A stretch of 63,982 nucleotides of DNA, the filler included, from Stramenopiles sp. TOSAG23-2 (taxonomy: Eukaryota): the NCBI GenBank assembly GCA_900128395.1. It is 7 parts of 7 records of this genome, joined end to end, with 100 filler letters (N's around TTAATTAATTAA, not from the genome) between each part and the next. Parts side by side here need not be neighbours in the genome. Positions count along the whole stretch, not along the records: positions 9,398 to 18,693 come from LT650110.1; 6 more parts are not named here. One strand, written 5' to 3'. The translations under genes and the position numbers were made by a program. Of this stretch, positions 1 to 51,555 are shown piece by piece (position 1 is the stretch's first letter; each line of letters opens with the position of its first letter). The notes under the pieces were generated by a model that saw nothing but the letters and a program-made list of their open reading frames with translations, searched no databases and was not told where the DNA came from.

Positions 1-33
1 TTATTTTTATCATCTTGCTTTTCCATCCCCGCA

Positions 34-3000: not shown

Positions 3001-4788
3001 TGCATTCCATGTAAAATCAGTAATAGAATTCCCATAAGCATTTTTTTTGGATTGATCTTCGAGCATTCTTTGAATAGAAAAGTTTAAAATTTGAAAAGAC
3101 CATGGTAACAAGCTATTTCCCTCAAGCGTGCTTCCTTCGATAAATGCATCACCAAACAGCGCAACAAAGACTGGTGTACTCCAAATTGGCCGTGGTTTTG
3201 GAAATAAAGCGGACAACGTCAACCCACTCCTTTGTGACTTGATTTTCTCTTGCACCTCTTGATTGAACATAGATAAAATCTTATCCTGAGCTCGCGTTTC
3301 TTTGACATATATATCATTTGAAGCACCCTCTTCAATTTTGACATATCGCAAAGAAATATCACCAGGCATCATCGATCCATCGTTTGATGAAAATAGGTAA
3401 AATGCCAAGGGATCCATAGAAAATCTCCCATCTTTAGATATTTCAGAACTTTCAATCGAAGCGCAAGGGACGGAATCTATCCATGTTTTAATTACCCCCT
3501 TTCTACTTTTTTTTGCCTTTTTTTTTTGTTTTGGCCTTCCCCTAGATCGTCTAGGTTTTGACCTTCCTCTTCCTTTTGGGCCAATAGCATCATCACTTTT
3601 CATTTCAACGCATTTAACAGAGATTACAACACGATGCCATTTCCCAACTTTAATTTTGCTTTTTACTGTGTTACCATACTTTCCTAAAATACCAACACCT
3701 CCATTGTTACCAACATGACATTCGCCATTAGATCGTGATATCAATACATCACCATCTTTGTTTTCGACTGCATGTACCAATGCAGTTTGAAATAGACTAA
3801 ATCCTTCATCCGGTGGGGCATTATTAAATTTTACATCCATTGTAATGGAATATTCGTTGACATTATCAATCATCTTGTTCAACCAATTGCCGCCACCACT
3901 AATGCCCGTGCCTAAAATATCTAGCCGGTCACCTCTTCTCGTTTCATTCATTTTACTTCCAGTACTTTTTCCTTCTTCTTTCTCTAGCGCCCTTCGCCCA
4001 AAGCTATCTAATTTTCTTAAATCCAATTTTAAACGATGGCCTGGCTCAATAATTAACGCCTTTGAACGATCAGATAAGACTTCAAATTTGGCAGTTGGTG
4101 GGGCTGGAATTTTTTCTTTGTTGCTTATGTTCGTAGCTGTACCTTGTTTTGGTGCTGCTATGTCAATGCTTTTTTTCTTTTGATCCCAATCATTTCCAGC
4201 ATTTGTAAGATTACTATTGTTATTATTTGTGTCGCTAATTGTGTTATTATCGTCGTCGTCAAGGTCCCAAGTTGTAAAATCAATGAAACCATCATTATCG
4301 TCACCGCCATCTCCACCGTAATATCCACCACTAATTGATACTACATTCGTACCACTATTCTTCTTTTTTGCTTTGTTTTGTGTTTCAACTGCGTTTTGGC
4401 TTGCATTTTCCATCAATTCTAATCCCTTCTCCGGTTCAATTAAAAAGCAATATTTTGGCCAATCTTCTTTTCCAAACCGAAAGTCAAAAGATATATTCTC
4501 CCTTGTTTTTTCTTCCTCCTTTTCACTTTCCCCGAAAAAATTTCTTCTTCCTTTCTTTCTTGGTTTCTTCTTTTTTTCCCTTTTAAACGTTGTTGTATTC
4601 CTTTCATTATTTTCACTTGTTCCAATCACATCATTTGTAAACGTATCATATTCATGTTCATAATTTAGCAATGTGGTTTCCTCATCATTATTTGTTGGCG
4701 TTTTGCTTGTTTTTGAGGGACCTCTTCCAGAATCATCTTCATGAGATGGATCATAAACAAAACCTTCACTATCAGAGGATGAAGACAT
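34..4788 (-). CDS. Large multidomain protein (1584 aa, probably 3'-incomplete): LamG/concanavalin-like beta region, helical region and a degenerate DEAD-box-like RecA domain
   Basis: Long intronless ORF. YSITMDVK...GKWHRVVISV resembles LamG-type strands. GYIRPTSIQ (Q motif), SPAGSGKS (Walker A) and QNVDEL (degenerate DEAD) mark the helicase-like part. The stop is 33 nt from the window edge and another frame continues. Confidence 0.7.
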   Translation of the reverse strand: MSSSSDSEGFVYDPSHEDDSGRGPSKTSKTPTNNDEETTLLNYEHEYDTFTNDVIGTSENNERNTTTFKREKKKKPRKKGRRNFFGESEKEEEKTRENISFDFRFGKEDWPKYCFLIEPEKGLELMENASQNAVETQNKAKKKNSGTNVVSISGGYYGGDGGDDNDGFIDFTTWDLDDDDNNTISDTNNNNSNLTNAGNDWDQKKKSIDIAAPKQGTATNISNKEKIPAPPTAKFEVLSDRSKALIIEPGHRLKLDLRKLDSFGRRALEKEEGKSTGSKMNETRRGDRLDILGTGISGGGNWLNKMIDNVNEYSITMDVKFNNAPPDEGFSLFQTALVHAVENKDGDVLISRSNGECHVGNNGGVGILGKYGNTVKSKIKVGKWHRVVISVKCVEMKSDDAIGPKGRGRSKPRRSRGRPKQKKKAKKSRKGVIKTWIDSVPCASIESSEISKDGRFSMDPLAFYLFSSNDGSMMPGDISLRYVKIEEGASNDIYVKETRAQDKILSMFNQEVQEKIKSQRSGLTLSALFPKPRPIWSTPVFVALFGDAFIEGSTLEGNSLLPWSFQILNFSIQRMLEDQSKKNAYGNSITDFTWNAMSDVARIFAGSAAIFKKMQRLIKFSNSSQLLTFLRRVKRWIDNLAVGETILLPLLVEGEEILLVVNRKTAQSYKFVVVNTNPLAGLGYHPVSAAISTKKIKYKTCLVFDDIPKQQAMCEVFLSSLYNLTIHKHKSDTDKFYDILIPFLTGKPFESSLVEIEENDKNDDEDLGWRTPQRSSTAYVRTILHAIRYMLMDMKVPKNQCKRLSLALRSEFLTFLQNDLNYMHPDSNGQRIARLACQQISYAAVKFGKISIEKHQAKMHLFVTDNESKTREREEKTIDKSAIVQMEEDAEFMLNYVLSEVQSCKRILDECKGSKSTLPPKLDMRDKANAPKRPFGQFHDSLAWSVEPATPDPGQAKTLGRYIPIDFLQLPVVAKTRDQAISALRYCDRLCELLDNQEHCIKNRQFLIQSIIQHTLTRVVPVPKPRNVDRTDAKKFKLSQRAARKKEKEKQLQNEKEERKILLKKNLKEALNIGGKMARTFSEIPGINGVLGHAIESSGYIRPTSIQCNVFSKLRFNEENADNLILYSPAGSGKSLCSVILSIETIRNAIKTKNKASLEEYETFSIFLTKSKKSAKILCKEFDKIMSKFPELSSTCKALSLDRKDVTDNETRKELRGGNHIVFGKIEDVARLIGINMLKIDSTSLFILQNVDELFMDDDQVMEDFQIILSNLIGTNTKDNSNTDEVGRRDNLSSSKFIVLAEKLNDKDAITNLFSCISSSSSSNIRDSFKEITSSKIDLDTKVSEDSMLNTTGFGIIAEPEFESKGAKAVADICNEICIWDAPIGHAMQVELLQILKRIMEHFYWSSMSIRQSRPFDAACIILPGCIAAIADSILRRRAFDHPSEVCTHLMGQTRSGRQLGISGFGLDIKTFAKQSETLEIHIPELNFARAAILDYFESPSQRLLTKFMTWGKDYKLTPDRPLMEYLRNVCRELGINDPAPYNLLIDSVPMYSRLFVNYSELHCFRDINFLWKHMLNPAIGGSG

Positions 4789-5443
4789 ATTATGACTTCT
4801 TTTATTATCTTGTGTATATTTGTTTTGTTAAATAAAACTATGTATATTTATTGTATATATGGATGTCGAATATAAGCTTATGTATCCAAGCATACTCTTG
4901 AATTTATAATTTATACAATATGTACCTGGTAAAGATTGTGTATGTGTGATGGTGTGCGTATATGTTCCTTGTATATATTAATAATAATAAAAAAGATATT
5001 ATTATATAAAGATACTATGGACTACCACCGGTGGTACCACCTGTGTTCCTTTTTTGGTTATCCTGATGTAGTGGTGTGCCAATGTGCCAGTATATTAGTG
5101 GTGTACACATGTATAATAGTTGTTTTGTTGAGTTTGATGTGGCAAGCGGGCATTGGCATATATTGGCGGCATATATTCTAATAAGTAAGCTCATAGTGCT
5201 ATAGTCTATACAGTATTAATATGTAGTTGCTTTTTTTTTAGACACAGATGCCACACAGATGATTTATTTCAATTATTTTGCTATTTGTTATTATTACAAA
5301 TATATATGTATTATTATTTGCAATAGCAAGAAGTGCAATTTATAATAATTATTCTATAGAATTATACATGTAAAAAGAAACAAATAAAGTAGAAGAAAGA
5401 GGAACAAAGCGACATCGTTTGCAATCATACAATATAGCAAAGA

Positions 5444-5992
5444 ATGAATCTACAAAATAAAGTACCCACATTACAACAATTTTGTTTAGAAATTGTTCGG
5501 AATAATTTACATTGTGTCTCAGGTGTCAAAGGTTTACCATCTATTTTTCAAGAGCAAATTTTAAATATTATCATTTTTGAAATAAAAGCAATAAAAAAAC
5601 GTGAAAAAAAATGGGAATTTTATATTAGTCTTTCACGGAGTGTAAAAAAATTCGTCATTCAGTCTATTCCATGTAAAACATTAGCTACTAAAATATTAAA
5701 CATAAGAACGAAGAAACGAGTATTACGTCTGCTAAGTGGAAGTGCAAATTTTGAAACTGTTGTACGAGAGTGTATTGCTGAGTCATCATCTTCACTTGAA
5801 AATCAAAATAGAAGGAAAAATGCTATCCAAAAAAAGAAAGAAAGGAATGAAAAACAATTCAAAATAAGAAAAAATCGTTATGAAAAAAAACTTATTAGAC
5901 AATTACGGAATAGTAATGGGGGATTAAATAAAAAATATCATAAAGTAAAGATTCACAGTGGTCATCAATGGAAATGTATGATGGAGATGTGA
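5444..5992 (+). CDS. Basic protein with N-terminal BC-box-like motif (Elongin A-like)
   Basis: VPTLQQFCLEIVRNNL fits the (T/S)LxxxCxxxV BC-box pattern; Lys-rich C-terminus. Confidence 0.5.
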   Translation: MNLQNKVPTLQQFCLEIVRNNLHCVSGVKGLPSIFQEQILNIIIFEIKAIKKREKKWEFYISLSRSVKKFVIQSIPCKTLATKILNIRTKKRVLRLLSGSANFETVVRECIAESSSSLENQNRRKNAIQKKKERNEKQFKIRKNRYEKKLIRQLRNSNGGLNKKYHKVKIHSGHQWKCMMEM

Positions 5993-6342
5993 AAAACTTG
6001 TGGATTTATTTTTTAATTTTTTAAAATTTCAATAATATAATGTATTATAAATATGATATAATATATATATATGATATCATATATATACGAGCTCGTACAT
6101 ATTTTATCATATAATAAAATTAATTTTAAACGCTTTAATATTTATTTTTTAATTTACCCAGTGATAATTCCTACCTCTTCAAAAGAATATATATATACAA
6201 TAACACTGAGACAATAATATCTATCTCACTCCAGGGTGTTTTATAAATTTTCTTCGTATCATATACGTACATATTATTCGTAAAAAAATATACGAAGCCG
6301 CATAAAAAAATATTTTACGAGAACTATACGATCCGCTTTGTC

Positions 6343-8957
6343 TCAATATATACTTTTTATCATCATTTCTTGCTTCCTTACCATGTCTAATTTCACAAAC
6401 CAACAAAATGCATTTTTTAATGTATCTAAGGATAATGCTTCATGGCATTTAATATCCCCACTATATAACTTCACTTTTATTGAATCTTGAGCTAATTTAA
6501 TATATGATTTACATATGGAATTTCGATTATTCTTCATTTCTTCATCGCCAGATGATAATAAATCAAATGGTAAGAATGAGATTGTAGCTGCATATGCTTC
6601 TTTATATGGCATGATGAATGATTTCAACAATTCCTTTAAAAATATAGTTTGATCAACATTGATAGATATTTTTTCTTCAACGCCATATTGATATTCATTA
6701 AATATAATTTCACGTTCAATCCCTTCATACATACCAGTAAAAAAATGTATTAATTGATTACGTAAATATGCTAATTTCAAAAATACATGAGGTGAAGAAG
6801 GTAATTCAATGTACTCCCAGGAAGCAGCAGCAATATTTACGTTGCCGTTCATGCCATTGTCATATTTAACACCCCGATATCCTAAATAAGGCAATAGTTT
6901 TTTAATATCAGCTATTGTATCCAACTCATTATCATTTGGTAAATGTGCACCTATTTGTACAAGTATATCTTTTAATATCAATACTTTTTTTAAAATCGTA
7001 GATAAATGAATGCGAATGTTGCTACCAAAACGACGACGAGGATGATGATAATGATGATGGCGAGTATTCCTTCTAGCATTATTTCGTGAACATCGTTCCA
7101 TTAAAATAATCGTTGCAATTAAAGATGTATGTGGTATAATACCATTTAATGCAACTTGACGTTGCAAGAAACATGCGATTTTTTCCACATTACCATCATA
7201 TTTATCAACTAATTTAAACATCGAATATGATGGAGCAAACCGAATGTACGCATTGCCACAATTATATCTGCTACTCTCGATACCAACCATCATCATCTTT
7301 TGTATAAATAACCTATAACCAATATGTAATACTAATGACAATGATTCTGGACTCTTTGGTTTGCCTAATAATTGCTCAACGTAATCATCCATTTCAGGAA
7401 TCATATCATATGTCAAAGCAACAGGCATAAATGCACAATCATGTTTACTATCTACTACCATAGATAGCATACCAAGCCTTGCTTTGATTAATTTACCGGT
7501 TCGGCTTCTACCACCTTCCATGAAAAATTCCAACATTGAATTATTTAGTTTTTTTGTTGTATTTTTTTTATTTCCTTCCATTTTCTCATTTTCATTAATA
7601 TTACTAGTATTAAAATCTTTGCTACTACTGTTATTTTCATCGCTGTTGTTACTTGATAAAGACAATACACCATGTACATATTTTTTACACGCAATTCGAT
7701 ATTTTGCCATGTCTAATGAACGAAATGAACGTTTCATAAAAAAGCAACCAGCATAACGTAACATGACACCAATTCCGAAAATATTTAAATTCTCCCCAGC
7801 ACATATTACTGGCAGAGGAAAATTATATGCAAAACATATATAGCTCATCATTAAATAATCAACATGGCTTTTATGTGATGGTAATAATACGATAGGTTTT
7901 TCCATAGAAATTTCACGCGCTTTTAAAATATTCATTTCGTCTACTTTCACCGTGGAAAACAAACGACGCCAAACTTTACCTAGCATCCATCCCATAGTAC
8001 GAACAACAAACATTGATAATCTTGCACCTTTGCCATGAAATTCAATTACTTCATTTTCCAATTCATGCAATAATTTTGATTTTTCATGATTCATTTCTTC
8101 CTCTAACATATAATTTGATAAATACCCAAATGTAATATCAGCAAAAATTGGATATCCAAGTAAATGTCTTGCAATGGATGATGGTATATTATTGTTCTTT
8201 TTATTAGTATACGCTACTGAAGAAAGTATTGATGATTCATATCTACCCGTACTATGCCCTAAACGCCAAGAAGATGTTAAAATATTGATATTAATATTGT
8301 CGTGATTATTTGCAATAACATTTTACTATGCCCTAAACGCCAAGAAGATGTTAAAATATTGATATTAATATTATTATTATTATTTGCAATAACATTTTTT
8401 ACTTGTTTATGATTCATATGATCTTCTTTACCTAAAATATGGCTTAATATGTTATTTACAAGTGGTGGTTTGTTTTTCTTATTATTATAATTATTATTAT
8501 TCACATTGTTATGACCGTAATTATTAATTGTATTAGTAGTATTGGTATCAGTTGTATAACTTATTTTTTTTTCAAAGTGATGATTATTATTATTATTATT
8601 ATTAAGAATAGTAGGTGATGCAGTGGTTGAAAAACTTGCGGTCGTTGCTGCTGCTGATGTTGTTGTAATTTTTTTTGCTTTACATGATGCACGATCAATA
8701 ATAAATGGTATATTATTATTCTGTAGTTGAAAATCAACCTTAGTCTCTGTTTTCTTTACTATCCTGAGCTTATCATTTCCATTTACTAAATTGTTATTAT
8801 TGTTATTATTACTGCTATTATTTTTCTTTTCACTCTTCTTCTTTTGTTTAATAGTAATTACTTTTTTTTTGTTTTTCTCCGGAGCTTTTTTCTTAGTTGA
8901 TACTGTTGCTAATACCACTGCTGCCGATATGACTTTTTTACCTTTTTCTTTTTTCAT
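6343..8957 (-). CDS. Glycerol-3-phosphate / dihydroxyacetone-phosphate acyltransferase (PlsB/GPAT/GNPAT family); N-terminal part split by a ~74-bp tandem duplication
   Basis: Acyltransferase motifs HKSHVD, GCFFMKR, FMEGGRSRTGK and PVALTYD in ORF 6343-8109. The frame stays open upstream of 8109 into the duplicated segment (~8250-8397) that links it to ORF 8277-8957. Confidence 0.85.
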
Positions 8958-9297
8958 GCTTTGTAAAATATAAATGATATTGTATTTGGAATGTCAAGTT
9001 ACAGGAACAGCTATGACAATCTATCTACGATCTATCTATCTACGATCTATCTACCTATCTATATAGTTTATATGTCACTGATAATGTGATTTTAATTTAG
9101 TCCACCACCACAAAAAAAAAATTGATGTGTATGTATTCATATGATGCGTAAATGATAGACAGATTAATTAAGATAGCCGGGTAATAGCTAGAGATGTTCT
9201 ATATATAGTAGTTAACTGGCTGTAGACTATTAATATTTGCGTCTACTATGGTACTTGTAAATAGCATTATATAGTTGTAACATAATTTATCAACGTT

Positions 9298-10846: not shown

Positions 10847-11046
10847 ATAAGTTTGGAGTGTTCACTTTTTCTTTGTACATTAATATTTTTTATTCTATAT
10901 TCAAAATAAAATACATCTATATAAACATTTTCAATTCATATCTTCACATAATAACAAATAACTATCTATATAGATCCATCATTTTATAAGTTTGGAGTGT
11001 TCACTTTTTCTTTGTACATTAATATTTTTTATTCTATATTCAAAAT
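10847..11046 (+). repeat. ~60-bp direct repeat (2 copies) starting with a variant of the cassette 14-mer
   Basis: ATAAGTTTGGAGTGTTCACTTTTTCTTTGTACATTAATATTTTTTATTCTATATTCAAAAT at ~10847 and ~10986. Confidence 0.9.
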
Positions 11047-11092
11047 CAAAACCATCTTTATACATATCAATAACCCGCTGCTCCATGACAAT

Positions 11093-11469
11093 CCTATAGC
11101 ACCCTCATCTTACCCCCCATGGTTACCCTCTTTTTACCCATTAGTTACCGGTTTCGTTACTTTTTAAAATACGCGTTTTATCGTAAAATTACACTAAATA
11201 ATCACGCGTTCTTTACCTAATTTCTCAAATGTGACAAATGTTACCTTTTTTCGCCATATCCCCGCTATATATATATTTTTTTTTATTATTATTATTTTTT
11301 TTATATTATTCTCTCAAACTTAAAAAATAGGTAAAAAAGTAACAATATATATATATTTAGTTATAAAACTATGATAAGGTGGAAGGGTTTTCTGATAAAA
11401 CGAAATTTGAAAAAAGTAAAAATACGGTAAAAACAGGTAACCTCAAGTAACGGTTATAAGGACTATAGG
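11093..11469. other. Strand-symmetric non-coding region with opposed GTTAC/GTAAC motifs around an AT-rich core (origin-like)
   Basis: GTTAC at 11122, 11144, 11156, 11240; GTAAC at 11339, 11437, 11447; bounded by CCTATAG/CTATAGG. The origin function is inference. Confidence 0.45.
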
Positions 11470-11516
11470 GGGTATTTTATGGGGTTATATCTATTTTTCA
11501 TTTTCATACTTAAAGA

Positions 11517-11559
11517 AAGTTTGGAGTGGTCACTTTGGAGTGGTCATTATCGAAAAATA
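11517..11559 (+). repeat. Cassette element, partial copy (14-bp direct-repeat module only, no AAAATTGA)
   Basis: AAGTTTGGAGTGGTCACTTTGGAGTGGTCATTATCGAAAAATA, then unrelated sequence. Confidence 0.95.
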
Positions 11560-11599
11560 TGCGGTCAAAAGATAGTATTTTTGTATATGTCTATTACAT

Positions 11600-12208
11600 A
11601 TGAGAGCAAAAACAAAAAACACTGATGATGAATCTGATTTCTACTCATATAACTTTTGGTTCAATAATCCAGAACACGATAGTTGGGACCAAGGTGGCGA
11701 GAAATATTATGTGAATTCATTTTATAAAAATATTATCATGAAATTGAGAGATATTCCAAAGGAAGGAAAAATATTAGTTTTAGGAACACATAACTGTTAT
11801 TCCTTTGATAAGTTATGTAAACACTTTGGATCTGATAGGTGTATAGGTTATGATTTACATAATCCAAAGAATCATCCAAATGTAGTTATTAAGAATTGTA
11901 TGGAGTTGTCTGAAGATGATAAAATGGATATAGCATTTGTTCATAATGACTTAGGCAACTACGCAACTACTCCAAAATTGAAAGAACATGCTCAAAAATG
12001 GGCAGCTAAAAATATTGTGAAAGGAGGATATATGTTATCAAATAATAATTTTAATAGAGCAAAAGTAAAGAATATTGAAATAATGAAAAAAAACGGATTT
12101 AAAGTTACACAATTGATTGATTTACAAAAGGAATTTGATTTAGAAGAATTAGCCAGAAATGAATTTGAGAGAATAGAAGGGTATATGTTAAGCCAAAAAT
12201 TAGAATAA
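11600..12208 (+). CDS. Putative class I SAM-dependent methyltransferase-like protein
   Basis: ILVLG (motif I-like), CIGYDL (acidic end of strand 2) and IVKGGYML follow the Rossmann methyltransferase order. Confidence 0.5.
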   Translation: MRAKTKNTDDESDFYSYNFWFNNPEHDSWDQGGEKYYVNSFYKNIIMKLRDIPKEGKILVLGTHNCYSFDKLCKHFGSDRCIGYDLHNPKNHPNVVIKNCMELSEDDKMDIAFVHNDLGNYATTPKLKEHAQKWAAKNIVKGGYMLSNNNFNRAKVKNIEIMKKNGFKVTQLIDLQKEFDLEELARNEFERIEGYMLSQKLE

Positions 12209-12227
12209 AAATTAGAATAAACAGAAT

Positions 12228-12315
12228 AAGTTTGGAGTGGTCACTTTGGAGTGGTCACTATCGAAAAATAAAATTGAATTAAAAATTGACATGTCACTCA
12301 TGATAAATTTGAAGA
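12228..12315 (+). promoter_or_regulatory. Cassette element copy (promoter half)
   Basis: TTTGGAGTGGTCAC x2, AAAATTGA at 12270 and 12282, TGACATGTCA at 12287, ends TTTGAAGA-ATG (12316). Confidence 0.9.
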
Positions 12316-12708
12316 ATGAGTACGCAAAAAAACACGCAATCAACACAATCCACTACGGATACAGCATTAAATACCACTGTAGATACAATGTTTAAATTAT
12401 TTAATTTACAGGATTTAGATGATTATGATGTTAAAAAAAAAATAGTAAAAGAAAGAAAAGGATGGATAAAGGAAGCATTACCAATTTTGAAACAAAACAT
12501 TTTGATACTTGATGAAAGTATTAGAGATGAAGTAACTAAAATTTGTTTAAATATACTAAAAGAAGTCCCATATGTAGATATTAGACCATATGCGCATAAT
12601 ATTATTAGAATGCAGTTATTTGGATTAGAGAACCATCTTAAAGATGAAGAATTAAAGAAGATAGTTACTATATTACAATTACCTAAACTTGGGTGGTGTT
12701 GTCCCTAA
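12316..12708 (+). CDS. Cassette ORF, hypothetical 130 aa (leader MSTQKNTQSTQST)
   Basis: ATG abuts the element; the stop is followed 17 nt later by the next element. Confidence 0.8.
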   Translation: MSTQKNTQSTQSTTDTALNTTVDTMFKLFNLQDLDDYDVKKKIVKERKGWIKEALPILKQNILILDESIRDEVTKICLNILKEVPYVDIRPYAHNIIRMQLFGLENHLKDEELKKIVTILQLPKLGWCCP

Positions 12709-12724
12709 ATAAAAATAAAAATAT

Positions 12725-12847
12725 GAAGACCGGAGATAGCTTTTTTTACTATGTATATGAAGTTTGAAGTGGTCACTTTGGAGTGGTCATTATCGAAAAA
12801 TAAAATTGAATTAAAAATTGACATGTCACTCATGATAAATTTGAAGA
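12725..12847 (+). promoter_or_regulatory. Cassette element, full copy (123 bp)
   Basis: GAAGACCGGAGATAGCT7-ACTATGTATATGAAG-(14-mer)x2-TATCGAAAAATAAAATTGAATTAAAAATTGACATGTCACTCATGATAAATTTGAAGA-ATG. Confidence 0.92.
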
Positions 12848-13216
12848 ATGAGTACAACTGTAGTAAACACAAACATGTCAACACAACAAATCCAAGCATT
12901 ACAAGAGAGGATACGCCAGTTAGAGGAGGCAAATAAAGCATTGGAATCTAAAATACCAAAACAAGCAAAGAAAGCTTATCCATTAAATATCAGATATGTT
13001 ATTGAGATACATAAAGATGTAACAGATACCAGCTTAGCCAAAGCAAAATGTCAAATACATCCTGAGATGAGCAAGATGAATAAATCAATACGTAATATTA
13101 TAAAGGAACATGGTTGGGCTATAAGTATAGGTAAAGATAAGACGGGACATAATGTTCCAATATTCAAACCTCTATTATTTAAAAAAAAAACAGAAAAAGC
13201 AAAAATTACAAAATAA
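12848..13216 (+). CDS. Cassette ORF, hypothetical basic 122 aa with N-terminal coiled coil (leader MSTTVVNTNMSTQ)
   Basis: Lies exactly between two elements; QIQALQERIRQLEEANKALE heptads. Confidence 0.8.
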   Translation: MSTTVVNTNMSTQQIQALQERIRQLEEANKALESKIPKQAKKAYPLNIRYVIEIHKDVTDTSLAKAKCQIHPEMSKMNKSIRNIIKEHGWAISIGKDKTGHNVPIFKPLLFKKKTEKAKITK

Positions 13217-13228
13217 ATTATATATAAG

Positions 13229-13352
13229 GAAGACTGGAGAAAGCTTTTTTTTATTACATATAAGAAGTTTGGAGTGGTCACTTTGGAGTGGTCATTATCG
13301 AAAAATAAAATTGAATTAAAAGTTGGCATGTCGCTCATGATAAGTTTGAAGA
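13229..13352 (+). promoter_or_regulatory. Cassette element, full but diverged copy
   Basis: Same layout with substitutions (GAAGACTGGAGAAAGC; second AAAATTGA changed to AAAGTTGG; palindrome degraded). Confidence 0.92.
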
Positions 13353-13901
13353 ATGAGCACAACTGTAGAAAACACAAACATGTCAACACAAGATAATTCT
13401 GGAAATTCACTTTCCCACCAATTATTAAATAAGATAGATGATGTAAAGCCAAAACTAACGGATAACGAGTATAAGGAAATTGTGGAGTTATTACAAAAAA
13501 AATATAAAGCAAGTGATAATCTCTACAATATGACTATAATGATTCCATGTATGAAAAAAGATTCGGAACACAGTGGTGGTGCATGCGAATGTTGTGAGCG
13601 AGGTTGGCCAGATTATTTTAACTTTGAAATAAAAACCATAACATTAGTACAAAAGTTAAAGAATGAAACAGTAACCAAAATAATGGAAGAATTAAACAAT
13701 AATAAAACTTTTATGGTCCCTTTTAGCTTTAGGTCATTTGATTGTTACCATAACAAGGAATTAAAAGCTGCTCTTGAAGCAAACACATTATTGGTTCAAA
13801 TATTAATACAAATAAGAGAGACATATACTTTGTATAATGATAAATTTCGTATATGTTCTCAACCCATCTATATTACAAAATTAGAACAAATGACAAAATA
13901 A
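13353..13901 (+). CDS. Cassette ORF, hypothetical 182 aa (leader MSTTVENTNMSTQ; CECC motif)
   Basis: ATG abuts the element; leader almost identical to that of ORF 12848. Confidence 0.8.
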   Translation: MSTTVENTNMSTQDNSGNSLSHQLLNKIDDVKPKLTDNEYKEIVELLQKKYKASDNLYNMTIMIPCMKKDSEHSGGACECCERGWPDYFNFEIKTITLVQKLKNETVTKIMEELNNNKTFMVPFSFRSFDCYHNKELKAALEANTLLVQILIQIRETYTLYNDKFRICSQPIYITKLEQMTK

Positions 13902-13964
13902 GTAAATATCTCAAAATCATTAAACTTTTTTAAGTAAAAATATACATAAACAATTCTGCTGTTT

Positions 13965-14720
13965 ATGTATATGATCATATTTAATAGCTGGTATGGTAGG
14001 TTAGGGAATAATATAATTCAATTAAAAAATGTAATACAAATAGCTTTTCATTATAAATATAAAATTTGGTTTAGATGCTCACATAAATTTTTTGATCTTA
14101 GAATCATAGAAAAATATTTCGGTAATAATAAAAATAGCAAACCGATAACGGATGAATATAATTTTTTTGATAGAAGCAAAATGAAACATATTCCTCCAGA
14201 AGTATTTCAACATAATAACAAAGAAGCTATTAATCTATTAAGACACGCATTTATCATAAAGGATAAAGATTTTAAGATATTAGATGAAAATGATCTGGTA
14301 GTACACATCAGAAGCGGAGATTTATTCAACAGTAGTCCACATCCGGGATATGTTCCTCCTCCCTTATCATATTACACCAATATCTTAAATAATACAAATT
14401 ATAACAAAATAATTATAGTCTGTGAAGATAAATTGAACCCTGTTGTAGATGAGCTGCTTAAATTATATGTTCATAGCACTCACAATGTAAATTGTTTGGA
14501 AGATGATATAAAAATTATTCTGGGTGCCAAAACTATAATTAGTAGCATTGGTACCTTTATACCCAGTTTGACTATGTTGTCTAATAATATATTGAAAGAA
14601 TACAACACATCATTATATAAAAAAGAATTAGAAAAATATTACATATGTAATAAACCGTGGAAGAATACCAAAATACAGAGAAACAATATTTTGAATTATC
14701 AAATCAACAATAACAACTAA
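13965..14720 (+). CDS. Glycosyltransferase family 11-like (alpha-1,2-fucosyltransferase-like) protein
   Basis: GRLGNNIIQ and VHIRSGD match the GT11 GxLGNQ and HxRxGD motifs. Confidence 0.7.
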   Translation: MYMIIFNSWYGRLGNNIIQLKNVIQIAFHYKYKIWFRCSHKFFDLRIIEKYFGNNKNSKPITDEYNFFDRSKMKHIPPEVFQHNNKEAINLLRHAFIIKDKDFKILDENDLVVHIRSGDLFNSSPHPGYVPPPLSYYTNILNNTNYNKIIIVCEDKLNPVVDELLKLYVHSTHNVNCLEDDIKIILGAKTIISSIGTFIPSLTMLSNNILKEYNTSLYKKELEKYYICNKPWKNTKIQRNNILNYQINNNN

Positions 14721-14808
14721 TTTTTTTAGTCACTGATAACACTGTAATTTCTACTATTGCTTATCGCAGTTTTGTATATGATAATTAATATCTTTGATGA
14801 ATATATAG

Positions 14809-15856
14809 ATGGAGTCAATAGCAAGTAAAGAGACCTTCTTTCTACAATGTAACCGGACCAATTCATTAATAGATAAAGACCTCCCTGAACAAAATTCAAG
14901 TTGGACGACCTCCCTTGGAACTGGTGACTTTAACCTTATGCCTGGAGATGTGGTGTTTGTTGATTCGGTTAGTTTAGATGTTTTAGGAGCGGAAGATTCA
15001 GATTCAACACTTTCCTTTACAGGCACCAACGCAATCCAAAACGGAGTAGAGATGCCGTATTGCGATAATATGGTGTTGTTAGAGGTAGGTTTTGTTTTAA
15101 ACCATAATGCGGGTCCCATAGGGGGGGGGTTACAGCCTCGGTCTCCCGTTAAAACTACCAAGTCAAATACAGGGTATAGGAAACCAAAAAATACAAGTGA
15201 ATCCTGGAAATTGGGATAGTAGTGGTAATCCAACAAAAAAATACGCAACGTTGGGAGCAGGTTTATTCAATACAGACCATAATACTACTACAATATCACC
15301 AGCTCCCATTAACGGCTCCTTGTTGTATGAAGTTACGGAGAAAAGGTGGAGCACGACACCAGCCAACGGTCCCAAGGACTTTAGGTCTATGAACGTAAGG
15401 CAAGGGTGGGACAATCTCCCTTATGTATTATTACGGAATGATTTTCAGGGCACACAAGGTCTTCCATATGATTTAGCTGATGGAATTACACCACCCCTCG
15501 CACCGCAAACCGCATTTATATTGTTAAATGTAGATGATTTAAATACCATCACCAATGTGAATGAATTGAGTGTATTACTAACCAACAAATTGAATAAGGT
15601 CAATACGGTTTATGGTGATTCACCTGAGGTGAGGGAATATTTAACCGATAGAAGTAAGCAAACGCAAAAAGGAGATTTGATTATTCCATATGTATTAGAC
15701 GATGATGATTTAACAACTACAAAGGCGTGGTCTAACATTGCAGCTAAGTTCTCAACTCCAACTATGCGCACCATCCCTGCCAACCTTCAAGTGGGTAAAG
15801 ATTACATTATGTATGTATTTTGCTCTTCAGAAGCGAATATATCTTTTTTTTATTGA
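14809..15856 (+). pseudogene. Single beta-rich, possibly virion structural gene, frameshifted at a G9 run and probably 3'-truncated
   Basis: Removing one G from 15121-15129 fuses ORF 14809 to ORF 15197 through an open frame (GGGYSLGLPLKLPSQIQGIGNQKIQVNPGNW). The structural role is inferred only from composition. Confidence 0.6.
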
Positions 15857-16019
15857 TGGTTTCAACAAACGATAATTCTTTCAAAAAATTATTTTTTGTG
15901 GTGGTATCTACTAATTTTACATTGGTTTCGGTGTTGTTGGTAAAATTAGATTTTTTGTTTTCGCATTGAGTAGGTGCGGTAGAGGAATCTGCTAAAGAAC
16001 TCATATATATTTCATACAT
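15807..16019 (-). pseudogene. Short ORF, probably the N-terminal stub of a longer gene
   Basis: MSSLADSS... start at 16004; overlaps the end of the convergent ORF 15197-15856 by 50 nt. Confidence 0.4.
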
Positions 16020-16084
16020 ATTTTTCTTTTATGTTACTTTTTTAATTAATTAATGTCTATTGTGATGATATATGGTAACAGAAT

Positions 16085-16108
16085 AAAAAAAGCTATCTCC
16101 GGTCTTCC
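16085..16108 (-). terminator. Cassette element, terminator-like half only
   Basis: GGAAGACCGGAGATAGCTTTTTTT 10 nt after the stop of ORF 16119-16382, with no promoter half following. Confidence 0.7.
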
Positions 16109-16118
16109 ATTTATATAT

Positions 16119-16382
16119 TTATTCATTAATTTCATAAAGTTCAACTCCATGTTTAAAATCAGCATCACCTATCAATTCCTCCAAGTCAATTAAATCAAAT
16201 TTGTCTGTTGCGTCTTCTTCATCTTCAGCCTCAATCTCAACCGTTCCTGACCCACAAATATTATAAGACATATAAAATTTTTTTAATTTAGCAGGTTCTT
16301 CTTTTTCTACTTCAATTGTTTTATTTAAGCTTTTAGAGATTTTTGTGTTTGTGTTCATGTTTTTTTGTGTGTTTGAGTTCAT
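16119..16382 (-). CDS. Cassette ORF, small acidic 87 aa protein (leader MNSNTQKNMNTNT)
   Basis: Between two element copies. TVEIEAEDEEDA resembles the VEAxxEEEA motif of small phage DpnD/PcfM-like proteins (weak). Confidence 0.75.
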   Translation of the reverse strand: MNSNTQKNMNTNTKISKSLNKTIEVEKEEPAKLKKFYMSYNICGSGTVEIEAEDEEDATDKFDLIDLEELIGDADFKHGVELYEINE

Positions 16383-16406
16383 GTTTTTTTATGTTTCTGT
16401 ATTTGT

Positions 16407-16524
16407 AATTTATCATGAGTGACATGTCAATTTTTAATTCAATTTTATTTTTTGATAATGACCACTCCAAAGTGACCACTCCAAAGTTCATATACATAGT
16501 AAAAAAAGCTATCTCCGGTCTTCC
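16407..16524 (-). promoter_or_regulatory. Cassette element, full copy with a different 3' end before the ATG
   Basis: The reverse complement matches 12725-12842 almost exactly; TGAAGA is replaced by a 24-nt A-rich stretch. Confidence 0.92.
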
Positions 16525-16537
16525 ATTAGTTTTATGC

Positions 16538-16912
16538 TTATAATTCATTATATTTATATTGAACACTGTTATTATGTAGTTTAAAACTACCAGTAGCAAT
16601 AGTTTCATTACATCCGCAATATTTATACACAATTTTAAATGAATACCATCCACCGTCTTCAAATCCCCAACCATACAACAAGCGTGCTTCATATTCATTT
16701 CTCATGGATGGTTCGCCATTAAATTCATCAAATTCATCATCCATATACATATAAACTTTTTTCCATTTGTGCTCTACTTTAACCATAAGTCTGTATTCTG
16801 GTGGGGCTGGTTTAACTTCTGGAACAATATGAAACAGGTGTGCTATGGTATTTTTTGCATTTTTGTCCATTGTTGATTGCGTGTTTTTTTGTGTGTTTTC
16901 TACTGTACTCAT
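16538..16912 (-). CDS. Cassette ORF, hypothetical 124 aa (leader MSTVENTQKNTQSTM)
   Basis: ATG abuts the element; the stop is 13 nt before the next element. Confidence 0.8.
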   Translation of the reverse strand: MSTVENTQKNTQSTMDKNAKNTIAHLFHIVPEVKPAPPEYRLMVKVEHKWKKVYMYMDDEFDEFNGEPSMRNEYEARLLYGWGFEDGGWYSFKIVYKYCGCNETIATGSFKLHNNSVQYKYNEL

Positions 16913-17030
16913 TCTTCAAATTTATCATGAGTGACATGTCAATTTTTAATTCAATTTTATTTTTCGATAATGACCACTCCAAAGTGACCACTCCAAACTT
17001 CTTATACATAGTAAAAAAAGCTATCTCCGG
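16913..17030 (-). promoter_or_regulatory. Cassette element, near-full copy
   Basis: CCGGAGATAGCT7...TTTGAAGA-ATG on the minus strand. Confidence 0.92.
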
Positions 17031-17101
17031 ATCCAATAATTATAAGAAAAATTATGATAAAATTAGGGAAATCGGCTGTTTTTTGATGAATAAATAGTGA
17101 C

Positions 17102-17335
17102 TGGATAAAGTCTAATTATTATTTTTTAAATAGCAACTGAATTTTGCGTAATTTGCGTATGATTTTTTGGAATACAAACTTTTATAGTATAAAAAAATAT
17201 ATCTATCTATCTTTTTTTTTTATTTTTTATCAAATTATTAAAAATTATTACGCTTTTTACGCAAATACAAAAAAAACGTATTAAAAAACGCTGTTGATAG
17301 GGGGAACATTCATACGCAAATTACGCCTTTATCCA
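17102..17335. repeat. Second strand-symmetric non-coding region (GCGTA/TACGC motifs, nested inverted repeats)
   Basis: GCGTAATTTGCGTATG (17146-17161) vs CATACGCAAATTACGC (17311-17326); TGGATAAAG (17102) vs CTTTATCCA (17327); AT-rich core. Confidence 0.75.
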
Positions 17336-17485
17336 CTACTTCTTTTTTAACCGAATGAATGGCTTTTAACTTATACACAAATACACAAATAATTACAATA
17401 AATACACTTTTATCACTACACATGCGTCACGTAAAAATATTATCACAAAAAGTTATACTATTTAACACGAAAAGTTATATTAAAT

Positions 17486-18463
17486 ATGAGCGATGATGAA
17501 GGAGCCAGGAGTGGTTCAAAAGCACTGAGAGAAGCGAGAAAAAGAAGGAGAAAAAGAAGACGAAAAAAAAAACAAGAACAACACAGTAGTGATGATGAAG
17601 ATGAAAAAGAAACTGCTATAAATGTTGATCGAATAACCCCTTCTGATGGTAGTGATGACGAAGGAAACAACACTCCTGAAGAAGAAGTGAATACAGAAGA
17701 AAGTAGCAGTAATAAAACCACAGTTCATTCACGAAAATATTTAGCCGCCACAGCTTTATACGATACTTATGATTTTATTACAGATATTTTATTTGTTGTT
17801 GATTTGGTTGGGACACCTTATTATAATTGGTCATTATTGTTTCTACTACTATCGTTTGTGCCATACTTTTTTTTCTATTTGTTGTGGTTTTGCAGGAGTT
17901 TTTACAATTTAAAGGAATACCGAGAAATTGTGTTAAAAAAGAAGGAATTTATGTTGCGTATGATTAAGATGCACCAACAACAGGAATTCCCCGACGAAGA
18001 ACAGTTACGTTACTGGGAACAAGAATTAAAAATTTTGGAAACTGGAGGTAAGCGTACGGTTGTGTTCACTCATAATTACACTCGGTTCACTGTTAATTAC
18101 GCGATATTAAAGGCAGATGAGGCTAAACAAAAGAAAACAGTTTTTCTTCAAATTCCAATAATAAATGCCTGGGCGTTATTAAGAGCAAAAGACGAAGACT
18201 TGGAAGAATTTTCTAAAAGGAGTCAAAGAAAACGTTTTATTTATCGCATTATTGAGGACATTCCTCAAACCATTATTGCAGTTCTGGTATTACGAGATGG
18301 AGGAGGAAGTTGGCTCACTTGGCTAAGTGTTGGATCAAGTGCGGTGTATTTAACTGTGTGGGTTTTTTATGAATTGATTTACTTAACATTTTTAACTGGA
18401 AAATGTTGTGTGGATTGTTGTAAAGAAGCAGATAGAAAATTAACTGCGATTATGCAGTCATAA
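17486..18463 (+). CDS. Multi-pass membrane protein, XK-related (XKR scramblase-like)
   Basis: YDFITDILF in the first TM hairpin and IIEDIPQTII later match the DxxTD and ExxPQ signatures of the XK family; charged low-complexity N-terminus. Confidence 0.6.
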   Translation: MSDDEGARSGSKALREARKRRRKRRRKKKQEQHSSDDEDEKETAINVDRITPSDGSDDEGNNTPEEEVNTEESSSNKTTVHSRKYLAATALYDTYDFITDILFVVDLVGTPYYNWSLLFLLLSFVPYFFFYLLWFCRSFYNLKEYREIVLKKKEFMLRMIKMHQQQEFPDEEQLRYWEQELKILETGGKRTVVFTHNYTRFTVNYAILKADEAKQKKTVFLQIPIINAWALLRAKDEDLEEFSKRSQRKRFIYRIIEDIPQTIIAVLVLRDGGGSWLTWLSVGSSAVYLTVWVFYELIYLTFLTGKCCVDCCKEADRKLTAIMQS

Positions 18464-18636
18464 AAAAATTCTACGTCCTCCATTATCCATTCTTTTCTTT
18501 CTTTTACTATTTTTTTTTTAACATCATAATCATCTAAATCCTGTAAATTAAATGATTTAAACATTGTACCTACAGTGGTATTTAATGCTGTCTCCGTAGT
18601 GGATTGAGTTGATTGCGTGTTTTTTTGCGTGCTCAT
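18379..18636 (-). pseudogene. Truncated paralogue of cassette ORF 12316-12708
   Basis: First ~51 aa are nearly identical (MSTQKNTQSTQSTT.TALNTTV.TMFK.FNLQDLDDYDVKKKIVKERK.WI), then the frame runs into the antisense strand of the XK-like gene. Confidence 0.8.
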
Positions 18637-18693
18637 TCTTCAAATTTATCATGAGTGACATGTCAATTTTTAATTCAATTTTATTTTTCGATA
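18637..18693 (-). promoter_or_regulatory. Cassette element copy cut by the contig end
   Basis: TATCGAAAAATAAAATTGAATTAAAAATTGACATGTCACTCATGATAAATTTGAAGA-ATG on the minus strand. Confidence 0.92.
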
Positions 18694-38939: not shown

Positions 38940-39160
38940 TCTATTTTTTTCTCTTGTAATTTCATACGAAGGAATTTTAAGAAGTATTTTTTTATAATAT
39001 TTTGTCCATCTTTCAGTTTAGTGAAATAGATATTATTGTCTCAGTTATTGTATTCTTTTTGGAGAGTATCATTCGTAGGAATTATCAAAATGAGTAAATT
39101 AAAAAATAAAGTTAATGCATTTAATTGATGGTTAAAATCTACACGCTTCTCGCATTTAAT

Positions 39161-39210
39161 TACGAGTACGAACTTCGTATATTATACGAAGTTCGTATAC
39201 AATACTCGTA
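39161..39210. repeat. Perfect 15-bp hairpin between convergent genes
   Basis: TACGAACTTCGTATA-T-TATACGAAGTTCGTA (39167-39197), with outer TACGAGTA/TACTCGTA. Confidence 0.85.
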
Positions 39211-39351
39211 CTACGCGTATCTTTTTCGTAAAGGAATTATCATATGAGTAAATTAAAAAAATAAAAAAGTTATGCATTAATTATACTATACGTACGCTTC
39301 GTACGTATTTTAATAAAAAATTACATGATATTTTACGATAATGCAGCAGCC

Positions 39352-41422: not shown

Positions 41423-41856
41423 TAAATAAATTAATTAGCTATCTGATTCCTCACACACAAATTTTATACATATAAATAAATTAATTAGCAATCTGATTCT
41501 TCACACACAAATTTTATACATATTAGTATGTGTTATGAGTATTCCATCACTCATCATTAATTCATCAGTATTAATGAAATTAATAATAATATAGTTAGTT
41601 GCACAAACCAAACAACAATTCAAAAAAATGGCAGGATATATAAGTACCTAATGGTATACTACCACCAGTGGTACAGGTAGCTAGCCCTGGGCTAGCTTAG
41701 CAGCAGCTAGCCAGGCTAGCGCAGCTAAGCCTAGTAGCCAGGTAGCTCTAATCATGGTGGCAAAAGTAAAAGCCCAAGCCCAAGCCAGGCAAAAGCCAGC
41801 AAACAGAATATAATGTGTGTATGTAAAAAAGAAATATATTAAAAAAAAACATTTTT

Positions 41857-42234: not shown

Positions 42235-42321
42235 TTTTTCTTTGCGAGTAGTAGCATCATAATATAAATCACAGCTACGGCAAAACGAAAATCACCACCA
42301 CGACCAAAAACATTAATCAAT

Positions 42322-51513: not shown

Positions 51514-51555
<42 letters not shown>

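Follow-up and report, generated by a model that had tools for sequence, protein, structure and literature searches.

The unit repeated along this giant-virus-like contig is probably a composite cassette of terminator, promoter and leader, whose copies would act as patches of homology that enable cassette exchange without a dedicated recombinase. The window, a stretch of 63,982 nt made up of seven contigs joined by N44-TTAATTAATTAA-N44 spacers, carries the unit on one 9.3-kb contig (9398-18693), where eight copies, complete or partial, lie on either side of six small ORFs that form two convergent arrays. This contig stems from a short-read assembly and ends in the repeat, within an element copy; cassette order is given as assembled.

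Anatomy of the repeated unit

The intergenic unit consists of four modules in the order T-R-P-L. T comprises a 16-mer of specific sequence followed by a T run (GAAGACYGGAGAWAGC + T7-8), R is a doublet of a 13-14-nt motif (TTTGGAGTGGTCA x2), P contains two AAAATTGA boxes, and L combines a short 5'UTR, the start codon and a conserved, disordered N-terminal leader rich in T, N and Q. The AAAATTGA octamer is described as the core of the early promoter in mimivirids, PgV/PgVV and pacmanvirus (PMC11788076; 10.1101/2022.07.28.501842), and 11 of the 12 octamers of the contig lie within units, in line with the mimivirid-type early promoter recognised in the initial annotation. All eight copies listed there were recovered: four full or near-full (12725, 13229 and, on the minus strand, 16407 and 16913), two promoter-side (12228 and, on the minus strand, 18637) and two fragments (11517, R only; 16085, minus strand, T only). 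Its description of the arrays also held, as six ORFs within the given range of 85-182 aa follow the promoter-bearing copies, and the distance from a stop codon to the next element, put at 10-17 nt, measured 11-16 nt at the four T-bearing junctions.

On the plus strand, the fragment at 11501..11559 contains the spacer, the R doublet (11517-11547) and TATCGAAAAATA; R is its only module, and the proximal region beyond differs and lacks AAAATTGA. A unit without T (12228..12315; R doublet 12228-12258, P 12259-12315, boxes at 12270 and 12282) is followed by full units at 12725..12847 (T 12725-12747, GAAGACCGGAGATAGC+T7; spacer; R 12760-12790; P 12791-12847) and 13229..13352 (T 13229-13252, GAAGACTGGAGAAAGC+T8; R 13265-13295; P 13296-13352). 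In the latter, A>G changes spoil the second box and the sole intact AAAATTGA lies at 13307. The minus-strand array ends in a T module alone (16085..16107), 11 nt past the stop of ORF D. It further includes a full unit (16383..16523; T 16501-16523, R 16458-16488, P 16401-16457) whose 5'UTR and 3' portion of P are unlike those of the other copies, a near-full unit (16913..17030; P 16913-16969, R 16970-17000, T 17013-17030) with a T module lacking its first bases (CCGGAGATAGC+T7) and no same-strand gene upstream, and a promoter-side P module cut by the contig end (18637..18693). Two tandem 82-nt repeats on the plus strand (10847-10928 and 10986-11067, 93% identical), each of which opens with one R motif in variant form (GTTTGGAGTGTTCAC), are possibly decayed units.

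The 88-nt R+P block is 89-99% identical across the five copies with both modules, and the 57-nt P module shows no differences among four copies. Inverted pairs on the contig extend over 127 nt (98% identity), 117 nt (97%) and 230 nt (94%). A 73-nt core pattern matched three times at 0 mismatches versus 0 matches in 100 shuffles, and the units are regularly spaced (532, 505 and 512 nt).

Cargo ORFs and flanking genes

The promoter-bearing copies lead into ORFs A (12316..12708, +, 130 aa), B (12848..13216, +, 122 aa), C (13353..13901, +, 182 aa), D (16119..16382, -, 87 aa), E (16538..16912, -, 124 aa) and F (18379..18636, -, 85 aa). The expectation that they are unrelated beyond the leader, apart from one truncated paralogue, was borne out at the protein level: with the first 20 codons removed, 0 of 10 pairs of ORF bodies scored above shuffles (z -1.24 to 1.31), and A/F was the only related pair. 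At the DNA level the highest z among 10 pairs was 2.49 (A/B). Other blastp matches were confined to the N-terminal leader, including that of C and E (E=1.8e-4 over 77 aa), and the predicted secondary structures of these two differ (C alpha/beta, E mostly beta; low-confidence models, pLDDT 61-66). By these comparisons the cargo bodies appear mutually unrelated.

ORF A had 0 homologues among 35 candidates. C and E are conserved genes whose leaders elsewhere have diverged: C has the homologues P0001-5 (52%) and another at 36% on a PLV/virophage-like contig (L032), and E has P0006 (57%) and P0007 (48%), both with the same leader type. The leaders of the C (52%) and E (57%) orthologues are of the window type in diverged form (MSSLTTENT..., MSSTVDNTQ...). 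Since these orthologues already bear the same leader type, the association of gene and leader is old and not due to a recent capture; the initial 'capture' label is not upheld.

F, a truncated copy of A, is 90.6% identical to it across 53 aa (blastp), and the homology stops near codon 53, no more than about 12 nt from the stop of a convergent 325-aa gene. The two differ by 3 synonymous and 5 non-synonymous changes, which makes F a likely remnant. The A/F pair represents the one dated event in the window. Between the T module that lacks its first bases and the shortened ORF F, the region 17036..18463 (+) comprises the 325-aa ORF (17486-18463), whose middle and C-terminal parts were judged by eye to be hydrophobic and membrane-like, and non-coding DNA in which TACGCAAA motifs occur on both strands; this segment looks like an insertion or replacement.

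The contig is probably of giant-virus origin, because the nearest Atlas clusters of its glycosyltransferase-like ORF (13965..14720, +, 251 aa) are Nucleocytoviricota, partly GT11. A T7 run lies immediately past the stop of this ORF. At 14809..15856 (+), a single gene is interrupted where a G9 run (15123-15131) shifts the reading frame; its 76%-identical relative P0009 remains in frame across this site. A 202-aa ORF (11600..12208, +) is flanked by two R modules; its start (ATGAGAGCAAAAACAAAAAACAC) is leader-like, and it has a weak SAM-methyltransferase match (Methyltransf_17, E=8.3e-5, below the cut-off).

Related loci and the origin of the array

The search for the element elsewhere, suggested at the outset, was successful for T, whose exact 22-mer is also present in nine IMG/VR giant-virus MAG loci, but not for R+P, for which pattern scans of viral, metagenome and genome contigs gave 0 matches. 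The R doublet, unlike T, is specific to its own genome. All 17 T instances (≤2 mismatches + T6) are located 11-62 nt past a stop codon, in each case that of an ORF (87-411 aa) on the same strand. An exact AAAATTGA lies upstream of 11/14 ORFs with T versus 19/91 without (105 ORFs; Fisher p=4e-5), in loci that were picked for carrying T and with 4 of the 11 T+P genes being the window's own repeats. The occurrence of T after stop codons is thus clade-wide and associated with AAAATTGA-promoted genes, and we read T as a putative 3'-end signal of early genes across the clade. The GGAGATAGCTTTT string had no occurrence in the literature searched, and no proteins were found to be shared between the T-bearing viruses and the array contig.

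One of the MAG loci, L034, has a layout like that of the window arrays (168aa-T+P-134aa-T+P-127aa-P-87aa-T), and its two T+P joints match each other exactly across about 50 nt. Comparison of cassette order across related genomes, likewise proposed initially, revealed that gene neighbours switch at T between related MAG loci (L034/L039, L035/L042 and L034/L042). Variable order is therefore seen, but only in other T-bearing viruses, as no flanked relative of the window array was found; since intergenic regions are short, viable breakpoints would fall near T/P anyway.

At the DNA level the window units are 89-100% identical, versus the diverged leaders of the C and E orthologues, so their near-identity points to homogenisation or recent copying, not to ancient conservation. 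Recombination footprints include the inverted partial duplicate A/F, remnants consisting of R only, T only or a truncated T, and array-private variants: C at T position 7 occurs in 3/4 window copies and 0/13 MAG copies, and A at this position is common to three adjacent L034 copies. A further footprint is that four alleles of the C homologue, without a single difference across 164 body columns, differ at 1-6 of 22 leader columns. The A/F event itself was illegitimate and not unit-mediated, because its breakpoint lies inside the ORF and not in a unit. The view that near-identical elements imply a recombination platform stands in part, given these footprints and the neighbour changes at T, while selection on two adjacent, clade-shared transcription signals accounts for part of the similarity.

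In the arrangement we favour, small early genes that are unrelated to one another follow head to tail, separated by composite boundaries, at which T would end the preceding gene and P, with its two AAAATTGA boxes, would act as the early promoter of the next. The near-identity of the copies may be maintained, or have arisen, through homologous recombination, gene conversion or recent copying. Spaced about 500 nt apart in direct and inverted orientation, the units would offer stretches of homology at which single-gene cassettes would readily be duplicated, deleted, inverted or exchanged, in the manner of PeSLs in T4-type phages, and no dedicated recombinase would be needed. We infer that genes are shuffled via the units; bracketing by like stop-and-start signals probably allows recombination to copy, remove and swap small genes.

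An ordinary early-gene array with no role in gene movement, in which the units are alike because they consist of promoter and terminator signals common to the clade and because genes were duplicated locally in tandem before their ORFs diverged, is rather unlikely. It agrees with the clade-wide nature of T and the AAAATTGA boxes, the even unit spacing, the leader already present in the C and E orthologues, and tandem paralogues, which are known behind repeated (AAAATTGAATTA)n promoters in the giant-virus MAG locus L017 and also in pacmanvirus (PMC11788076). However, 10/10 body pairs have no residual similarity, C and E each have separate orthologues, and selection on motifs explains neither the 89-100% identity of non-signal spacer, R and 5'UTR positions nor the array-private variants. 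An assembly artefact, in which dispersed genes sharing a repeat of about 130-190 nt were misjoined or the repeat collapsed, is very unlikely. Although the contig terminates within a unit, a short read may fail to span the near-identical sequence (about 190 nt) that separates unique flanks, and the frameshift in the homopolymer points to possible sequence errors on this contig, the copies are distinguished by private substitutions and module content. The immediate promoter-to-ORF junctions make the pairing of unit and ORF independent of order, and the independently assembled L034 has the same layout.

The integron-like system of the initial annotation, with single-gene cassettes moved at the units by a site-specific recombinase encoded off-site, is not supported and is highly improbable. 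The unit-ORF-unit-ORF layout and the sharp left borders 11-16 nt past stops would suit it; the recombinase could be off-contig because the contig is incomplete, and a tyrosine-recombinase-like ORF end was recognised by eye on L032, the PLV-like contig with the C homologue. Against it, none of the 20 ORFs scanned belongs to a recombinase family, in agreement with the first inspection; the unit neither contains an inverted repeat of attC type nor folds like attC (z=0.61; 141/200 shuffles fold equally well), each cassette comes with a promoter of its own, and the right border is graded and varies by pair. The unit also splits into transcription signals seen at ordinary gene ends of other giant-virus MAGs. 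Equally remote is a transposable 'mobile promoter' or MITE-like element inserted upstream of existing genes: near-identical copies do stand beside unrelated genes on both strands, but the alignment of unit copies displays neither terminal inverted repeats nor target-site duplications, the left part (T) would functionally belong to the upstream gene, and the leader is translated and found in orthologues.

Comparison with known systems

Integron gene cassettes form arrays of single unrelated ORFs with a repeated site between them, and depend on IntI, the attC hairpin and a common promoter. The window arrays share the former trait but lack the latter three, and a promoter and a terminator are predicted for each gene. 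Baculovirus hr regions are palindromic enhancers/origins and not gene-boundary units, and the EhV-86 family A promoter repeat is a 9-mer. These also are dispersed, near-identical non-coding repeats connected with early expression and variable regions, but neither unites terminator, promoter and leader as the window unit does. In poxviruses, early genes end at the termination signal T5NT. In ASFV, 7 or more consecutive T form the terminator (PMC7163114). The window units resemble these signals in having a T run soon past the stop of genes that the viral polymerase transcribes, here linked to early-promoter genes, and differ in the conserved 16-nt sequence preceding the run.

The 2-kb episome and tandem array of pacmanviruses likewise combine small genes, AAAATTGA early promoters and a T-rich 3' motif; copy number is strain-variable, and the episome is apparently excised (PMC11788076). 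The pacmanvirus ORFs, however, are paralogues with 25-42% identity, whereas the window bodies are unrelated; the 3' motif there is WWTTTATTTTTTAWW without the 16-mer, and the available text of that study reports no near-identical long intergenic unit.

Closest are the PeSLs of T4-type phages, small units of terminator and early promoter (Arbiol et al. 2010, PMC2839356; Comeau et al. 2014, PMC4122927), and the likeness noted initially extends to the composite nature of both. Both are compact, bridge the gap between one gene's stop codon and the next gene's start, and occur in many repeats upstream of small ORFans where related genomes differ in gene content; both would rely on general homologous recombination, as we propose here, and not on a dedicated recombinase. 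The present unit belongs to a putative eukaryotic giant virus, with a AAAATTGA promoter instead of sigma-70 and a linear 16-mer plus T run instead of a stem-loop, and is longer (about 120-180 nt), with the R doublet and a leader that is translated. The phage elements are on record for mini-circles and for promoter/terminator activity, and the giant-virus unit is known here from its sequence.

Modular structure of the repeated unit

The seven contigs of the window (~9.3 kb each) are separated by N44-TTAATTAATTAA-N44 spacers. The whole finding lies on the second contig (9398-18693), which has a G+C content of 30.7% and terminates within a copy of the element. Once aligned, the copies prove modular. 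Module T consists of GAAGACYGGAGAWAGC and a run of T7-8, and a spacer of 14 nt lies 3' of it. Module R is formed by two copies of TTTGGAGTGGTCA, and module P by TATCGAAAAAT-AAAATTGA-ATTA-AAAATTGA together with 27 nt of 5' region. Module L begins with ATGAGYAC and continues in AAACAC-rich codons, which yields MST(T)VENT-like leaders. The copy at 11517 is an R module upstream of a 202-aa ORF, the copy at 12228 (R+P+L) leads into the cargo ORF A, and those at 12725 and 13229 (both T+R+P+L) lead into ORFs B and C. On the minus strand, a T module at 16085 lies 3' of ORF D, the copy at 16407 (T+R+P, with a different 5'UTR) leads into D, the one at 16913 (truncated T+R+P+L) into E, and the one at 18637 (P+L, cut by the contig end) into F. 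All copies listed in the initial annotation are present at these positions, and the repeated unit is a real feature that chance does not explain: a 73-nt core gave three matches at 0 mismatches, against none in 100 shuffles. Over the 88 nt of R and P, the five copies holding both modules are 89-99% identical, and four copies agree exactly in P.

The unit before ORF C carries a cluster of transitions within ~60 nt (13296-13358; four A>G and one T>C relative to its sister copies), one of which abolishes its second AAAATTGA box. Module P also contains two ATGs (CATGTCACTCATGATAA; 12820-12850 and sister copies) upstream of the cargo start and out of frame with it. They open a short overlapping frame, whose presence in the mRNA depends on the transcription start site.

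The contig has 12 AAAATTGA octamers, 11 of which are located inside units; in the remaining six contigs, 54.6 kb in all, the octamer occurs 10 times. Every cargo ORF (6/6) is preceded, at 27-39 nt from its start codon, by one or more boxes of its own, a placement consistent with a mimivirid-type early promoter, in which AAAATTGA lies at most ~150 nt upstream of the start codon. The initial annotation had assigned the motif to the early promoters of Mimivirus-like viruses. This agrees with the literature, where, in the parts of the sources consulted, AAAATTGA is the early-promoter core of mimivirids and is reported too for PgV, its polinton-like virophage PgVV and pacmanvirus (PMC11788076; 10.1101/2022.07.28.501842). 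Module P is therefore treated here as a putative early promoter. Its doubled box corresponds to one and a half turns of the 12-nt repeat AAAATTGAATTA. A 20-mer of the doubled box matched 31 IMG/VR loci, many of them in giant-virus metagenome-assembled genomes (MAGs), none of which has more than 23 nt in common with the contig. In one giant-virus MAG locus (L017), the promoter boxes themselves are amplified, with four to five successive copies of AAAATTGAATTA in front of tandem paralogues (1930-2060 and 3735-3815).

The R doublet (24-mer) had no match in viral contigs, the three-part R+P pattern none in metagenome or genome contigs, and among 42 fetched loci the R motif gave only chance-level matches with 2 mismatches. 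The contig had no megablast match among phage records, and pattern and protein searches of viral, metagenome and genome contigs returned no relative of the window's own array.

A candidate early 3'-end signal in a giant-virus clade

Nine IMG/VR giant-virus MAG loci (L034-L042) contain an exact match to the 22-mer GAAGACYGGAGAWAGCTTTTTT. These loci and the window were scanned for instances of T with at most 2 mismatches plus T6. Each of the 17 instances lies behind an ORF of 87-411 aa on the same strand, at a distance of 11-62 nt from its stop codon; this position holds across the clade, and ten are followed by a AAAATTGA-like box within 120 nt. At 3 mismatches, the 16-mer was found 21 times in 433 kb, compared with 0-5 times in five shuffles. 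Among 105 non-overlapping ORFs of L034-L042 and the contig, an exact AAAATTGA precedes 11 of the 14 ORFs with a downstream T, but 19 of the 91 ORFs without one (Fisher p=4e-5; the loci were chosen for holding T, and four of the 11 are the window's own repeats).

On the contig, a solitary T (16085-16107) follows the last gene of the minus-strand array, and no T precedes the first unit of the plus-strand array. The four T modules of the window end in T7-T8, which fits the T-run terminator of NCLDVs (at least seven T shortly after the stop), and T6 or more occurs within 47 nt 3' of 8 of the 11 ORFs on the contig. Given its position after stop codons, its solitary occurrence at an array end, its absence before the first plus-strand unit and its link to AAAATTGA genes, we interpret T as marking the 3' end of the gene before it, as a signal of a type typical of early genes and with putative terminator activity. 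It is analogous to the early terminators of poxviruses; in mimivirus, hairpins serve as transcript 3'-end signals. A further analogue is found in ASFV, where a run of at least seven T ends transcripts according to the consulted part of the source (PMC7163114). The 3'-end signals described in the portions of the literature consulted are hairpins or plain T runs only, to which the 16-mer would add sequence specificity, and a search of one literature library for the string GGAGATAGCTTTT gave no match. The 16-mer and the T run behind early-promoter genes are thus a candidate for a sequence-specific early terminator of this giant-virus clade. In two of the MAG loci (L034, 12860-12930; L042, 805-830) a short perfect hairpin (CTGTGTT...AACACAG) lies between the stop codon and T, and may be another type of 3'-end element that occurs together with T.

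The T-bearing MAG loci have no protein in common with the window contig. The layout of L034 is that of the window's arrays (168aa-T+P-134aa-T+P-127aa-P-87aa-T-381aa). Its small ORFs look unrelated by eye, while ~50 nt, spacer included, are the same in both of its T+P joints. Parts of the MAG loci are 70-92% identical, with homology blocks that end at T. L034 and L039 have the 168-aa gene and T in common and differ in the genes beyond, and an 87-aa gene that immediately precedes the 168-aa homologue in L039 lies three genes downstream of it in L034. In L035 and L042, T, promoter and downstream gene are shared (86%) but the genes before T are not; the one in L042 is a homologue of the 168-aa gene of L034. 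L038 and L040 are syntenic across T (92%). Breakpoints coinciding with the joint, which would be expected of a promoter-early stem-loop (PeSL) cassette, were seen in three comparisons (L034/L039, L035/L042 and L034/L042), although breaks near T are partly expected because the intergenic regions are short.

Cargo genes, leaders and instability of the region

The six cargo ORFs comprise 130, 122, 182, 87, 124 and 85 aa (A to F) and belong to no Pfam family. F is a truncated copy of A (90.6% identity over 53 aa), and all other blastp matches were confined to the N-terminal leader, including that between C and E (E=1.8e-4). With the first 20 codons removed, none of the ten other pairs exceeded shuffles at the protein level, and the top DNA z-score was 2.49. 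The claim that, apart from one truncated paralogue, the ORFs are unrelated beyond their leader is borne out.

ORF C has a cluster of 52%-identical homologues (P0001-5, on contigs of ~1 kb) and a 36%-identical homologue on the locus L032. The latter is part of a 17.8-kb contig that encodes an A32-type ATPase and a D5-type primase-helicase, and is thus polinton-like or virophage-like. For E, homologues were found at 57% and 48% identity; those of C and E are uncharacterised only, and a word-index search returned none for A. Another protein matching E (P0008) was not accepted as a relative: it is a Sushi-repeat protein, and the match falls on a short Cys motif. Protein searches of viral contigs with C alone, the 251-aa ORF, the E alignment and the metagenomic protein P0009 revealed no related locus, nor did the E alignment against genome contigs. 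Fold searches with low-confidence models of C and E yielded nothing beyond weak matches to uncharacterised viral proteins (best TM 0.36 and 0.44).

The leader is translated and predicted to be disordered (pLDDT below 50 at residues 1-19 of C and 1-28 of E). The homologues carry leaders of the same kind in diverged form (MSSLTTENTSEM... for C, MSSTVDNTQTQNT... for E), so the association of gene and leader is older than these lineages. This argues against recent gene capture. A second case of unrelated neighbours with a common promoter and common first codons is found on L032 (9930-10760), where the C homologue and the next gene each follow a AAATTGATTA box at ~50 nt and begin identically with ATAATGAGCTTAAGTAC (MSLST).

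The leaders diverged with their proteins, yet the units of the window are 89-100% identical at the DNA level; judged from this discrepancy, homogenisation or recent copying must lie behind the copies within this genome. Three further observations point the same way. Position 7 of T is C in three of the four window copies but in none of 13 MAG copies, and A in three neighbouring copies of L034. Four alleles of the C homologue are identical over the 164 columns of the body and differ in 1-6 of the 22 leader columns. The homology between unit pairs extends unequally into the ORFs, from ~42 nt (B/C) to ~160 nt (A/F).

A and F form an inverted partial duplication, whose homology stops within ~12 nt of the stop codon of a convergent 325-aa gene. 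This gene and 450 nt of non-coding DNA adjoin, on the other side, a T module without its first bases; segment 17036-18463 thus resembles an insertion in, or a replacement of part of, the minus-strand array. F differs from A by three synonymous and five non-synonymous changes and is probably a remnant. A methyltransferase-like gene (the 202-aa ORF) is located between two R modules, its own proximal region replacing P. None of these rearrangements is a unit-to-unit exchange; they reveal an unstable region, not a mechanism.

A fragment of a giant virus is the best reading of the contig. The neighbouring 251-aa ORF is similar to glycosyltransferases of Nucleocytoviricota, in part GT11 (Atlas score 0.98). 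The gene at 14809-15856 is frameshifted in a G9 run (15123-15131) where its 76%-identical metagenomic relative P0009 is uninterrupted, indicating either a sequencing error or a recent pseudogene. Neither Rfam matches nor tRNAs were detected on the contig, alternative genetic codes uncovered no hidden gene in its non-coding left 2 kb, and PDB sequence and NCBIfam searches, like an Atlas search with the frameshifted gene, yielded nothing informative. Two non-coding stretches with an AT-rich core look like origins or factor-binding sites: 11100-11480, with GGTAAC/GTTACC at 11122, 11144, 11240 and 11436 on both strands, and 17137-17330, with TACGCAAA at 17143 and 17152 (minus) and at 17258 and 17313 (plus). 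A comparable inverted-repeat region of GGTTATTTTGG occurs on L032 (6780-7120).

Neither T nor R was found on the other six contigs. Those at 1-9297 and 37551-46815 encode long ORFs without introns, namely one of 1584 aa with a DEAD helicase domain, one for a GPAT-like acyltransferase and one of 1246 aa for a HECT ligase. The bin may thus mix sources, and these six contigs may belong to something else. At 46916-56153, the mirror-symmetric order of ORFs of 607 aa (+), 497 aa (-), 497 aa (+) and 607 aa (-), the 607-aa ORF being a sulfatase, points to either an extensive inverted duplication or a palindrome created in assembly, with its centre at ~51.5 kb.

Known cassette systems and a possible mechanism

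The integron-like platform proposed in the initial annotation is not upheld. Integrons carry IntI beside the array, whereas no recombinase family was recognised among the 20 ORFs scanned on the contig, as the annotation itself had noted; with a contig of only 9.3 kb, such a gene may lie outside it. Their attC sites are imperfect inverted repeats that fold as hairpins; the window unit folds no better than shuffles (z=0.61) and its internal repeats are direct. Integron cassettes are promoterless and depend on one common promoter, whereas each of the six ORFs here has its own AAAATTGA box or boxes. With these three features lacking, membership was rejected, as was a reading of the unit as a MITE-like transposon. 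The array of pacmanvirus, in the part of the source consulted, is led by AAAATTGA and has a T-rich 3' motif and an apparently excised 2-kb episome (PMC11788076). Its ORFs are paralogues, however, and mutual homology of the kind seen in such tandem arrays (e.g. the pacmanvirus PLE genes) is limited here to A and F.

We propose a mechanism in which early genes lie head to tail, each bracketed by the early promoter and early terminator of the clade. The joints (T, R, P and L) would recombine with one another and thereby stay alike. The direct repeats that they form, at intervals of ~500 nt, and the inverted ones on either side of 13.9-16.1 kb could duplicate, delete, invert or exchange single genes. 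Tentatively, and with the odds rather against it, a giant-virus clade may possess its own PeSL counterpart: portable cassettes of early promoter, small ORF and terminator, whose conserved joints act as recombination sites through which small early genes are duplicated, deleted, inverted and exchanged, be it inside one genome, among co-infecting giant viruses or with their polinton-like or virophage parasites. Circular single-cassette intermediates may exist. The homologue of cargo gene C on the polinton-like or virophage-like L032 touches on exchange with such parasites.

In T4-type phages, PeSL is a composite terminator and early-promoter unit that precedes ORFans, lies at indel borders and forms mini-circles, as described in the consulted parts of the sources (PMC2839356; PMC4122927). 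An early promoter and a terminator appear to be joined in one intergenic unit here too, and this unit likewise precedes small ORFans (85-182 aa, no Pfam family; the homologue searches cover A, C and E). The resemblance seen in the initial annotation thus stands for the composite unit and its placement, but not for the stable stem-loop terminator and the sigma-70 promoter of PeSL, in place of which the window unit has no stable fold (z=0.61) and a AAAATTGA promoter. It differs from PeSL also in adding R and a translated leader. With its AAAATTGA promoter and no stem-loop, the unit is an analogue of PeSL and not a member. A PeSL-like reading is the best current one, and we consider it somewhat favoured. 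A literature search combining 'PeSL' with 'giant virus' returned a jumbo-phage review only, and one for promoter repeats or cassettes in giant viruses, covering mostly titles and the beginnings of abstracts, nothing equivalent. The question bears on the means by which the many small orphan genes of giant viruses are acquired, lost and reshuffled. If the reading is true, a repeated terminator-promoter joint serving also as a patch for recombination would be a simple mechanism for this, in parallel to that of T4-type phages.
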